Source: Octopus vulgaris (lineage: Eukaryota). Taken from it: a stretch of 64,000 bases of DNA. The notes under the pieces are model-generated. The model saw only the letters and a program-made list of their open reading frames with translations. It had not been told where the DNA came from and did not search any database. Position numbers and translations under genes: made by a program. Within the stretch, counting starts at the first letter, position 1; each line of letters begins with the position of its first letter. This document shows, piece by piece, positions 1,100-63,459 of this stretch. The DNA lies in the NCBI GenBank assembly GCA_951406725.2, contig OX597819.1:122946001-123010000 (forward strand), read 5' to 3'.

Positions 1100-1183
1100 G
1101 CAGCTGATGATAGCATTGCATTTAAATTCATGCAATGATTGCATAGTTCACCTAAAAGAAGCCGGTTGATACGGTCGTACTGT
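1100..1183 (+). ncRNA. Degenerate type I hammerhead ribozyme
   Basis: GCAG-CTGATGA...GATAC-GGTC-GTA-CTGT. Stem I is intact but GAAAC is mutated to GATAC. It is followed by TTGCTTATTTTGAT, also seen near 46330 and 60096. Confidence 0.6.
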
Positions 1184-4099
1184 ATTACTACTTGATATCA
1201 TGTTGCTTATTTTGATATACATATATATATATATATATATATATATATGTGTGTGTGTGTGTGTGTGTGTGTGTGTGTGTATGTGTGCGTTTTTGTGTGT
1301 GTGTATGTTTGTGTGTGTGTGTGTATATAAGTATGTATGTACATATATACATATATATGCACATATATATATAGATATATAGATATATATATGTATATAT
1401 ATATGTATGTATATATATATATATAATGTTTCATGCAGGAAAACTGTACACGAGACCTTTGTGGTGGTGGTGGTGGTGGTAGGGTGGGAAGCAAGCTTCT
1501 TACCACACACCCACGAGAAAATACATCAAACATAATTGCTGAAAATTCATAGGGGGTACATTTTTCATTTCGTTTCATTCGGCACTCCTTTTGATGAGTA
1601 GATCCCTTTTTAACATGCACTGGTGTGCAGAAAACGCCTGCGTGATGTATTCGCTACTGATTCCAAAAAGAAAAAGAATAACAACAAGAAAAAACAAGAC
1701 GAACACTTCGAAGATGTTATTGCTTAACTCATTATAATACAATTCTAATTCTAAGAAAATGGTAAAGTGATGGGTTTGGAGAATATCAAATCAATTGAGT
1801 ACGAAAATAATGAAGAATCGAAAATGACACTTCAAAGGCGACAATCTGTCTCATTTGTTTTCAATGATTCGCCAACTAAGATGTAAGGGAAACAGATATA
1901 AAAAACGAAAAGCACAAGTCATCAAATAGAAGGAAAATGTATGTAGAAAAGAGGTACCCGTAGCATTTCGGTAAACAGAGTAGATAATATACGGAATAAT
2001 AGAATTGCTTCTTTAAAATGAAGTAAAACAGTAAAGATAGTCACTAAAAACGGGAACCAAAATATTCTTGCTGTGCTGTTTCCAGCAAAATTACATTGAG
2101 CAGAAAGAAACCAATATGGGAGAGATAATAAGCAAAAGCGAAAAGAAAAAAAGGTTTTAGAATAGAATGCTTGATTAGAAGAGCTGCCAAATACATTGCA
2201 ATTGCAGATTGTGCAGTTAGCATCAGAAAACTTTAGGCAATCAAATCTTTTGATAGTCAGTTTTTGCCAAATAAATATTGTAAATGATATGATAGCATAG
2301 GCGTTTTGTGGTTGTAATTGTTCCTGTCAATGCAGTTATCGAAGTTGTTGCTGCAATGATCATTGCTGTTGTTGTAGCTGTTGCTGTTATTTTTGTTCTT
2401 TATATTATTGTTGGTGATAATATAAAGATAAGAGACGAACGAATAGACTTATGATCAAGTGCCTTCCAATTGAGACTATCCAGTATTTTATTTCAGATAT
2501 ATTGTGTAAAAGTTTCATTATCCAATGTACTCTCCCTTTTATAAAACGCTAGACAATTATCCGGTGGGATTTAGCTGTTATTTCTAGGAGGTAGATCGAC
2601 CGCATGTAAGATCCATTATTGACTTGGAAATAGGTGTCCTTAGTATGACTTTACTGCATCCGGTGGTGGGAGCACTGGTTCGAAAATTTCCAAGGTCTTG
2701 AGGCGTGTGAAATGTTCTCGGGCCCACTGTAATCAGGACTCCAACAATAGATTATTTAGTATGTCACGGAATTGATTCTGGAAGAAAGTCATTCACAGAC
2801 ACCTCAACGGACCCAGGGTTGATGAGGCCCTTCAGGTTTTTAGTTGCTCATTTAAGAGAAGTTACACCCATATGGATACTGATATTTACTTGATATGGAT
2901 ACTGATATGGATCTTGATATTTTCTGTGCCCATGGTAGTTGTTCCACTCATACCAGTACAAATTGAAAGGCGAGACAATGGACCTGCGTTAGCAAAATTC
3001 ATCACCCCTGCTTCTATCTGAGATAGTTTATCGAGCGTTTAAGAAAGACTAAGGGAGTAAAACACTGCAAGATATCCAGCGGGAGTGACCCTAAGTCAAT
3101 ACCTGGTACTAACTGTGGCTCCATAGATGCTGCGAACGTATCCACTTGCTTTTCTTTTGTGGTGTATCTACGAGTAGTGAGGCAGCAAATGTATTTAAGG
3201 TTAGGCATTTGCTTTCGGTAAACGACCAAGCAGAGAAGAGACGGTAAAGTTATTGAGTCTTAGATACAGGCGACCAACAAGAAAAAAAACAGCCAATCAA
3301 ACAACCTTATGGAACCTGAGTTATAAATAAAGATGTATTACCAATCAGACAGTGTAGATCTGTCATGTGCAACCTTCGGCCCGCGGGAGTATCTGAATGT
3401 CACATCTAAAGAAAAATTACCTTGAAGGTTTTAGTAGTATGGCTAACCAGATGAATAACTGTGTCTCATACGGCCTGTTTCACAAAATATGTTTAGATTG
3501 CATTATAATATTGCTAACGAAATCAAGTCTGCCCCTTTGAAAAACTATGAAATGCACTACCATGACAGTGAAACGACAAATGTTTCTGATATTGGTACAA
3601 GGTGATACATTTAAAGACGATATTTTTTTGCTGAATAAAGCCACATTATTTCACTTATTTTATTGATGGAGTAATGAGGGATACCACAAATGTCATACCA
3701 CAAATGTCATATAAAGCTGCGTCGGCTGCGGGGTCATTCCGAAAAGCTCTATCTGCGACGATTTCATCTCAATCGAAGGAGAGGGGCTTTCTCCGTCCGT
3801 TCAAAGTCTCCCTTGACCTCAAGTGGCCTGAACTCTTTACATGAACACCACCCTGTACATAACTCCATGTCCTCCTACATGGCCTCGCTTTTTGCTTTTT
3901 GAGCCCAAAAATTAACTAATTAACTAACTAACTAAAGCATTTTGCCGGTGCATTTTCAGTGCTGCTATCCATTGCTTTTTATTTATGGAAATAATAATGG
4001 TGATGTTGAAGTTTTGCTGTTTTGAGAAAGAAGAAACCTATGGCATTTATGGATCTGTCACTGAACTTGATAGCGTAAATGAACTGAAATAATAACAAC

Positions 4100-4850
4100 C
4101 AAGAATAGATAGAAGATTGCGAACACTGTGTTGCAGAAGTCAACTGTTATATATTTATACTAGGAATTCTCAATTCTATACAAGATACACAAAACAACAA
4201 AAACAGTAACAAAAAAAATAGATTTGGTAGTGAATTACACACGTGGTTCCATTCTCATAGCCACATATGGAGTTTGAAACCCAACGCAATATCACACACG
4301 ATTAAGTGGAAAATAATAGAAAAATCCACACTTTATGTTAATGGATCAAATAAATGTAAGCTAAGGTTAGCTGAGAAAGCTCAGATCCTTTGCAGATCTA
4401 AAATCTCTAACTCACTACTGAAACCTCGGTCTGAAATTTTCAGCGGCTGTAAACATATGTCTAAGTTTCTTTTGAAGAACTGGAAAATTCTGCCTATACC
4501 AGATTAATTTGTCGCTATTTTTCCCAGCCTTATAATTTAAGATAAAGGGAGATAAATCTTTGAATACCTTCACTTATTTCTGATTTCTTTTTTCGATTCT
4601 CTGTTTTTATACCTTCCACGTTTTCTATATGCTTACTTCTTGACATTTCCCGTTTCTTCTCTCATTCAACTTTTAGTTTCTTATGCTATGTTGTTTGTGT
4701 CTGAAGATTGTGCTATGTTACACATGTTATAATTCATTATTTGGCATTTTCTCAGCGCAAGAAACTATTTGTAGCACATGAAAACGTATTGTGTTTATCA
4801 AATAATATTTATCTCTCACCACATGGAGAACTTTCGGGGAACAGTAGATT
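4100..4850 (+). mobile_element. Penelope-like element 3' remnant (GIY-YIG C-terminus plus pLTR-like 3' region)
   Basis: ORF 4274-4507 reads IKWKIIEKS..Y.NGSNKCKL.LAEK..IL...LL..RSEIFSGCKH.SKFLL, typical of the Penelope C-terminus. A hammerhead motif lies downstream. Boundaries are approximate. Confidence 0.8.
4696..4778 (+). ncRNA. Type I hammerhead ribozyme, complete core
   Basis: Stem I TGTGT/GCACA, core CTGAAGA (4701-4707), stem II TTGTGCT/AGCGCAA, GAAAC (4761-4765), short stem III AC-TATTT-GT and a GUA triplet. Predicted cleavage after 4773. Confidence 0.85.
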
Positions 4851-62307: not shown

Positions 62308-62682
62308 ATTTCAAATTTTGGCACAAGGCCAGCAGTTTCGTAAGGGCTGGAGATGCTAAGTGGATTATATCGACTCCAGGTATCGACCTCGGAAGGATGA
62401 AAGTTAAAAGCGACTTCGGCGGAATTTGAACTCAGAACGCTAAGATGAACGAAATACCTATTTCTTTACTACCCACAAGGGGCTAAGCACAGAGAGGACA
62501 AACAAACGTATTAAGTCGATTAGATCGACCCCAGTGCGTAACTGGTACTTATTTAATCGACCCCGAAAGGATGAAGGGCAAAGTCGACCTCGGCGGAATT
62601 TGAACTCAGAACGTAGCGGCAGACGAAATACCGCTAAGCACTTTGTCCGGCGCGTGAATAATTCTGCCAGCTTACCACCTTA
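62308..62682 (-). mobile_element. SINE family B dimer
   Basis: Two consecutive units with CGGCGGAATTTGAACTCAGAACG. Confidence 0.88.
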
Positions 62683-63258
62683 TAATAATATTGTGTAATT
62701 GCGATAACTGTTAATCTCAGGAATACAGAACAACTTTACATACATGACATACATGCATACATATGTAAGTGAGTATGACCGGGCAAATTGCATCACGCTG
62801 TCTTTCTTTTATGCGGCTAATGGCGAGCAGCCATTAGACTCTCTCAACGCAGCGGATGGACCAGTCGGAAATAAGGGCGGCTTCGCCTAACTGGCACAAA
62901 TTTACTGCTGAGTAAACTGGTGCAATACAAAATGAAGTGCTTTACTCAAGGACACAATACATGAGTAGAAACCATGATTTTATGATGCGAATCTCAACAC
63001 CCTAACCACTCTGCGTCTTTATACGCACATGCTGATATGTACGTGTAAACACAATTGCTTATCCGCTAAATATATATATATATATATATATATATATATA
63101 TATATAATGTGAAATAGAAAGATGAATAATCTTGTAGTAGATTAATCAAAAGTTTAACCGATACCTTAGTAGCAAAAATCACAGCAGTAAACAGCACGGT
63201 TGGAGGTACAACCATATGGTGTTGCAACCGTGCGTTGGTGCGGATAATTGAAATTAAA

Positions 63259-63459
63259 ACATTATTGGTGAATTGAAGAAATGGAGCTGAACGCAGATTG
63301 AACAGAAATCGTTTTATTTCATTCTACACGTGTTTCGAAAGGCACAAATTACAAATCGGATTTTGGTAATTTGTGCCTTTCGAAACACGTGTAGAATGAA
63401 ATAAAACGATTTCTGTTCAATCTGCGTTCAGCTCCATTTCTTCAATTCACCAATAATGT
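63259..63459. repeat. Perfect 94-bp inverted repeat with 13-nt loop
   Basis: 63259-63352 is the exact reverse complement of 63366-63459. Each arm carries GAAAC-ACGT-GTA. Confidence 0.95.

Follow-up and report, generated by a model that had tools for sequence, protein, structure and literature searches.

We describe a 64,000-nt stretch of the Octopus vulgaris genome (assembly GCA_951406725.2, contig OX597819.1, positions 122,946,001 to 123,010,000 of the forward strand; this whole stretch is referred to as the window), which is AT-rich, contains 109 tandem-repeat rows and holds a dispersed set of hammerhead ribozyme motifs. A sequence-only reading had proposed eleven such sites, attributing them to non-autonomous mini-elements mobilized by Penelope proteins and associated with (TA)n tracts. 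Its link between Penelope-like elements (PLEs) and type I hammerheads was borne out: ten of the eleven sites proved to be type I hammerheads in whole, decayed or half form (the exception being 14483-14518), and every site belongs to a multi-copy family, eight families in total (A, A', B1, B2, C, D, E and F). The features of the window are as follows.

1053..1213, plus strand: stub of family A' with a decayed hammerhead at 1100-1183 (CUGAUGA kept, GAAA lost), then (TA)n.
4259..4486, plus strand: C-terminal piece of a GIY-YIG endonuclease of the Hydra type, immediately upstream of the hammerhead of family E (tblastn E=7e-9, family A endonuclease; L175).
4696..4778, plus strand: hammerhead of family E with a complete core; predicted cut after 4773, element end near 4850.
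13338..13640, plus strand: palindromic stub of family B1 (inverted arm 13338-13439, sense arm 13465-13640) with a decayed U6-core hammerhead at 13517-13550.
14293..14609, minus strand: palindromic stub of family C, truncated below the ribozyme; 14483-14518 is its inverted junction sequence.
21600..21817, plus strand: diverged stub of family B2 with a decayed U4C hammerhead at 21647-21683, ending in (TC)n(TA)n.
33049..33266, minus strand: stub of family B2 between (TA)n runs, with a minimal U4C-core hammerhead at 33166-33202.
46283..46437, plus strand: stub of family A' between (TA)n runs, with the 3' half of a hammerhead only, from 46296.
46962..47374, minus strand: palindromic copy of family D with a complete hammerhead at 47111-47170; the family unit is 482 bp and non-coding.
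59490..59836, minus strand: left arm of a family A copy (by its motifs Hydra-type) with a complete hammerhead at 59624-59707.
59920..60111, plus strand: right arm of family A with a G5C-decayed hammerhead at 60013-60075.
63097..63459, minus strand: palindromic stub of family F (young and, by its motifs, Hydra-type), comprising the last 265 nt of the element and a 106-nt inverted arm.

The two family A arms point outward with (TA)n at both outer ends, and neither arm of the family F stub retains more of the hammerhead than its 3' half. Each named site was used for a search of the entire assembly (2.8 Gb, 227 contigs), which yielded per family 203-2745 first-look candidates (these are not copy numbers), of which 40 were scored and 20-30 fetched. 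The hammerhead counts of families A and A' overlap, each reference having also caught the other family, and are not used as family sizes.

The three motifs proposed as complete, at 4696-4778 (plus strand), 47111-47170 and 59624-59707 (both minus strand), do have canonical cores and helices. At the family level, the CUGANGA / GAAA / UH core with three helices, open at stem I, is present in A, A', C, D, E and F, while B2 (C4) and B1 (U6) depart from the canonical core; from one family to another the stems are entirely different and the core is conserved, as the earlier reading had it. The copies reported as variant or decayed (1100-1183, 13517-13550, 21647-21683 and 60013-60075) are genuine family members, with GAAA lost in the first, stem II and G12 damaged in the second and a G5C change in the last. 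The sites at 46296 and 63382 are indeed 3' halves, and the missing 5' half is present elsewhere in their families. The site at 14483-14518 had to be rejected, being the reverse complement of sequence downstream of the true ribozyme of family C, that is, the inverted junction of a stub which itself has no ribozyme. Another region, 13800-14200 (a repeat 94% identical to L189:2845-3080), carries the words CUGANGA and GAAA twice each on its minus strand and was not accepted as a hammerhead site, the stems around these core-like words being unconvincing.

The possibility that the motifs are chance matches in AT-rich repeats draws on the false site just mentioned and on an Rfam search of the window, which gave no match at the gathering score and, at E<=1, no hammerhead among 150 listed of 352 rows. 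A loose initial descriptor also gave only a weak excess (2 motifs vs. a mean of 0.33, with 2 reached in 1 of 12 shuffles). In contrast, a descriptor that required stems I and II together with a stem III of palindromic sequence (tuned after inspection of the data, and compared with 200 block-wise dinucleotide shuffles) found in its strict form three sites (4696, 47111 and 59624) against a mean of 0.04, none of the 200 shuffles reaching three; with U4C or A6U allowed, 33166-33202 was added, giving four against 0.14 expected, again reached in 0 of 200. Further evidence against chance is provided by the position of the hammerhead, which lies near the 3' end in all eight families, by a stem III that is palindromic in every family (dimer type), by covariation and by the match to the published layout of Hydra hammerheads. 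The covariation expected by the earlier reading was found in a comparison of stems I and II between A and A', where 87% of the cells are paired (vs. 21-50% in slid controls), 7 of 18 pairs are changed on both sides, and the score is reached by 0 of 500 shuffles. Stem III segments of all six types analyzed are predicted to be unfolded alone and paired as dimers; in family D, 5-6 of 32 copies keep the palindrome, shortened by 2 nt. Taken together, these observations make a chance origin extremely improbable.

The question of what carries these ribozymes is answered most completely by family F. Locus L195 is a whole copy, a 3626-bp unit in which an 899-codon open frame lies between two pseudo-long terminal repeats (pLTRs), the latter being 1001-bp direct repeats of 98.2% identity with a hammerhead in each, followed by a 73-bp inverted end and flanked on both sides by (TA)n. 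The encoded protein has a DKT motif and a CxxC..E..N..CxH signature, without CCHH; it has RIRW in place of RWK and no CxCX5C. Among 107 homologues (from 8000 candidates scored), DKT/S is present in 94, CxxC..CxH in 75, CxCX5C in 65 and CCHH in none; the protein has a homologue in Argonauta. All 40 scored copies of family F are 100% identical over 231 bp, which points to a young family. A cluster of at least three F copies, direct and inverted, is also present at L198 (G000:C8:90159000-90168000), with no (TA)6 run in 9 kb.

Contig coverage in putative RNA data sets hints at transcription of family F, but not at its strand or at cleavage. No sequencing run was annotated as RNA, and the RNA status of 14 runs was guessed; the family F open reading frame (ORF) is covered by 1.1-2.5 kb contigs of ~99% identity in three of the runs guessed to be RNA, and patchily in a fourth. 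The unique DNA at 61526-62281 is uncovered in two of these runs, which fits their RNA origin, and is covered by two large runs. Adapter-like loose ends occurred in one run, in numbers too small to be of use. A search for an empty-site allele of the window copy of family F, in which the repeats at both ends were skipped, found none. With its youth, open frame, two ribozymes and long contigs in probable RNA runs, family F is suited to testing the role of the ribozyme in retrotransposition, and the role of hammerheads in PLEs is considered an open question (Craig et al., 2021, PMC8557442).

A reverse transcriptase (RT) and, at the C-terminal end, a GIY-YIG endonuclease share a single ORF in F (whole) and in A, E and B1 (fragments). 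In family A, the ribozyme strand leads upstream through a 1.6-kb 3' untranslated region (UTR) to the C-terminal endonuclease, with CxCX5C, CxxC and CxH, and then to RT motifs; the Pfam search of this protein returned a GIY-YIG match below threshold. An antisense ORF upstream of family A was rejected, being 3' UTR, with the true ORF on the ribozyme strand further upstream. This UTR contains an internal direct repeat (~280-bp spacing, ~80% identity; L031-L060), and an Asn-rich linker separates RT from endonuclease. Family E has the end of a Hydra-type endonuclease just upstream of its hammerhead, both in the window and in L189, and A' is a sister of A by sequence. Since copies of A, E, F and B1 extend upstream into RT or GIY-YIG coding sequence, the window copies of these families are 5'-truncated ends and not mini-elements; the proposal of non-autonomous mini-elements thus fails for these four and holds at most for family D, with its 482-bp non-coding unit.

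On the basis of their motifs, families A, E and F are assigned to the Hydra type. The marks of this clade are DKT, lack of CCHH, a C-terminal GIY-YIG with CxxC and CxH, an RWK motif and a CxCX5C linker (PMC8557442). With its members, including Hydra-1_Obim of Octopus bimaculoides, our elements share the C-terminal GIY-YIG without CCHH, DKT, and CxxC with CxH, and they also share features listed in supplement S2 of the same paper, namely (TA)n targets, a 3' hammerhead with a palindromic stem III and, often, a U-U pair closing stem II. Nevertheless, the three families are distinct from Hydra-1_Obim, whose listed hammerhead differs, and the stem II loops of A, A', E and F (40-70 nt) are longer than those listed for Hydra elements. 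Compared with Hydra-1_Obim, family F is longer (3.6 kb, 899 codons, with a low-complexity linker), has RIRW for RWK and no CxCX5C, possesses pLTRs and is very young. Neptune-like elements were observed directly beside family A copies at three loci (L054, L053/L233 and L057), an adjacency that suggests shared targets or nesting.

The arrangement of the copies is informative with respect to insertion. The reported association with (TA)n is confirmed, since 164 of the 219 copies fetched have a TA run after their 3' end, as compared with 5-14% of random positions in the same loci. Among 25 copies of family F, the sense arm starts at 19 different points; an inverted arm adjoins it in 18 of them, and these 18 junctions are all distinct except for one duplicated locus pair. 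Such junctions fit truncation and inversion at each insertion rather than the copying of a fixed palindrome and, as the palindrome centers differ between copies, the mirror half was likely built at insertion. The outer end of the inverted arm in family F often falls ~156 nt short of the 3' end. The arms stand head to head, so that any two ribozymes in a palindrome lie on opposite strands; pLTRs in direct orientation, each with a hammerhead, were found in L195 (F) and in the B1 tandem of L233, in addition to the inverted arms of F. The 3' ends are located 33-262 nt past the predicted cut at family-specific distances (two D ends and one B1 end further), and never at the cut.

Much of this architecture has precedents. 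Truncated solo copies, as well as pairs on opposite strands 100-700 bp apart, have already been described (Cervera and De la Peña, 2014, PMC4209133), and the inverted pLTR of Penelope (Arkhipova et al., 2013, PMC3846280) shares the head-to-head arrangement, the one-sided tail (30-40 nt, vs. ~156 nt in family F) and low-complexity inserts between RT and endonuclease. An octopus repeat annotation counts PLEs, including recently active ones, and the available part of its main text makes no mention of hammerheads or ribozymes (PMC13282606). Taken as a whole, the set belongs to known biology: hammerhead-bearing PLE termini, inverted stubs and (TA)n targets have all been listed before for a Hydra element of an octopus.

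We consider it highly probable that the window motifs reside in the 3' pLTRs of several PLE families, the copies being likely dead 5'-truncated insertions that likely acquired their mirror arm as they inserted into (TA)n. The anatomy was read directly from the copies, from which we infer priming, cleavage and action as a dimer. In the proposed scheme, tandem master copies would be transcribed and two motifs would pair via the palindromic stem III, releasing unit-length RNA; the ribozyme would likely act only in transcripts of such tandem masters. The GIY-YIG endonuclease of the element would nick (TA)n, the RT would copy the RNA from near its 3' end, usually halting after a few hundred bases, and a second priming or a fold-back would add the inverted arm, with a new junction each time. 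The insertions extend well beyond the cut site, so that the RNA serving as template was likely uncut or circular. The palindromic stubs would form a long hairpin and not a ribozyme; for five window palindromes, hairpins with 49-199 long-range pairs are predicted. Speculatively, palindromes such as 59490-60115, if read through by the host, might yield long double-stranded RNA as a substrate for A-to-I editing or for small-RNA pathways; a literature search on editing of inverted repeats returned nothing specific.

Several observations weigh against parts of this scheme. Cleavage, RNA ends and circles are all predictions made from sequence, and for an Anolis element cleavage was dispensable for insertion in vitro, with no RNA ends at the site in the available account (PMC11167929). 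The minimum-energy monomer fold is not the three-way junction in five of six near-intact motifs, 47108-47172 being the only one that is. The A/A' covariation stems from a small number of subfamily changes passed on to many copies and does not represent 54 events; one of its five measures ("further pair types") stays within the shuffled range (380 of 500). Bias is also present in the measured 3' ends, as the queries contained sequence beyond the cut site. Pfam returned no match for the family F protein, so that its clade placement relies on motifs and on a by-eye likeness to Hydra-1_Obim. Finally, the genomic loci fetched yielded no coding parent for C, A' or D, and for B2 there was one partial match in 1 of 30 loci.

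This last point touches on an alternative in which the short copies are non-autonomous, retrozyme-like elements, transcribed, cut, circularized and re-inserted by Penelope proteins. Its best case is family D, with a 482-bp unit, a longest stop-free frame of 66 codons and head-to-tail copies at three loci (spacings 473, 482 and 936). Ten of 29 mapped D loci (two being one and the same place) continue upstream into the tail of the unit itself, and the monomer folds better than shuffled sequence (z=-3.1). Two complete hammerheads 482 bp apart occur at L120/L113, one locus only, the first unit in L100 being deleted; endonuclease matches in D loci L098 and L115 were not counted, since they are not continuous with the D unit. 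Family D shares with non-LTR retrozymes (Cervera and De la Peña, 2020, PMC7229834; Li et al., 2026, 10.64898/2026.07.22.740005) a non-coding, AT-rich head-to-tail unit with one type I hammerhead, and at one locus it has the non-coding tandem of at least two consecutive complete hammerheads asked for by Li et al. (2026). It differs in length (482 bp vs. the 150-450 bp quoted) and in forming dimers and partial tandems only, without long arrays, most copies being dispersed, truncated or inverted like PLE stubs; cephalopods are not mentioned in the available text of PMC7229834.

All 30 B2 loci are also short, as this alternative would have it; however, they were picked by similarity to a short query. 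The family C 5' core has four exact genome matches, all beginning shortly upstream of the ribozyme. The coding parents of A, E, F and B1 and the family F junctions, unique in each copy, both speak against the alternative, and no same-strand ribozyme tandem was found in the fetched loci of A', B2, C or E. We regard a retrozyme-like origin of the short copies as unlikely, in favor of truncated PLE ends. Only family D looks non-autonomous, being a likely protein-less derivative mobilized in trans, while C, A' and B2 have no firm parent either way.

Within this largely known biology, the abundant U6 core of family B1 is the one feature likely to surprise a specialist. With U6, the B1 motif of 30 letters has 14,944 exact matches in the genome (vs. 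0 for a reversed control). Present in at least that many exact copies, B1 is the most abundant hammerhead seen in this genome; the same motif with another base at position 6 gave 543 matches, mostly C among those listed. In 54 B1 copies from loci not selected for position 6 (12 position-6-selected loci being excluded), U6 is present in 50 and, CpG decay aside, only positions 7 and 17 vary, with 17 never G; these are the two free positions of the hammerhead consensus (N7 and H17). A hand count of position 7 in the first 100 listed matches gave T 41, A 26, C 22 and G 11. G8, A9, A13, A14 and stem II are invariant across subfamilies with differing flanks.

The parent of B1, found at L233, contains an RT, a CX4CxxC linker, a CCHH-type endonuclease with two cysteines between GIY and YIG, and the B1 tandem with hammerheads; endonuclease sequence also lies upstream of B1 in L204 and L223. 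These motifs place B1 as Neptune-like, with the reservation that the CX2-5CxxC linker and CCHH endonuclease are shared with Nematis, so that the two clades are not separated for B1 by motifs alone. Both B1 and B2 share with the minimal hammerheads of metazoan PLE pLTRs (PMC4209133) an extra base after A9, G10.1-C11.1, a palindromic 15.2-16.2 and the lack of a loop. The core variant given there is U3-A8, whereas B1 has U6, and B2 has C4 together with U17; U4C is known from a viroid (PMC3088659, PMC7151607).

In view of this pattern, the hammerhead of B1, with its U at core position 6, likely retains a working fold and is predicted to still self-cut. The closest known case is the A6C hammerhead of phage Bcep176 (PMC3088659, PMC7151607), which shares a natural change at position 6. 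There the base is C, in one phage example that is weak in Mg2+ and active mainly in Mn2+; in B1 it is U, in a minimal motif of the dimer type that has ~15,000 exact copies and whose activity is a prediction. We found no description of a natural A6U or CUGUNGA hammerhead in the literature covered, Lünse 2017, the likeliest source, lying outside that coverage.

An alternative is that the B1 motif is dead or non-catalytic, U6 having abolished cutting, and that it was kept for protein binding, RNA dimerization or coding, or was spread with its master. Changes at position 6 are reported to have low activity and the natural A6C barely cuts in Mg2+ (PMC3088659, PMC7151607), while in one B1 reading frame N7 is also a third codon position. 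Nevertheless, a coding cause of the N7 variation was rejected, because the other third positions are invariant and 40 of the 54 copies run into a stop codon; this frame is open for a median of only 20 codons upstream. Variation at positions 7 and 17 over an otherwise fixed core and stem II, across subfamilies with differing flanks, also speaks against a relic. We consider a dead motif possible though rather unlikely. The stronger combined proposal, in which B1 is an undescribed natural CUGUNGA variant cleaving as a dimer, alongside a mobile, transcribed Hydra-clade family F and a 482-nt cephalopod retrozyme D, is put forward tentatively, with somewhat more doubt than confidence.

In either case, B1 provides a natural experiment on the catalytic core, with thousands of copies holding U where the base is treated as invariant while the two free positions wander. 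If B1 cleaves, broader hammerhead descriptors and a broader structural explanation of the uridine turn would be called for; if it does not, something other than cutting maintains the motif. The former would mean that position 6 is not fixed in PLE ribozymes and that CUGANGA-based surveys miss whole families.

The window also contains features apart from these families. The spacer between the family A arms (59837-59919) is a fragment of another repeat, which resembles what we take to be a DNA-transposon end and has an inverted copy at ~60760-60850, ~900 bp away. An isolated fragment of a Hydra-type endonuclease (22659-22827, plus strand; 57% identical to the family F protein) is embedded in a repeat resembling a short interspersed element, with no ribozyme downstream. 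A non-LTR retrotransposon with an 863-codon open frame occupies 9354-11945 (plus strand; Pfam RVT_1 E=1e-31 and a weak endonuclease match), and a 2.7-kb (ACAT)n array at 28251-30980 is the source of many spurious microRNA matches in Rfam.

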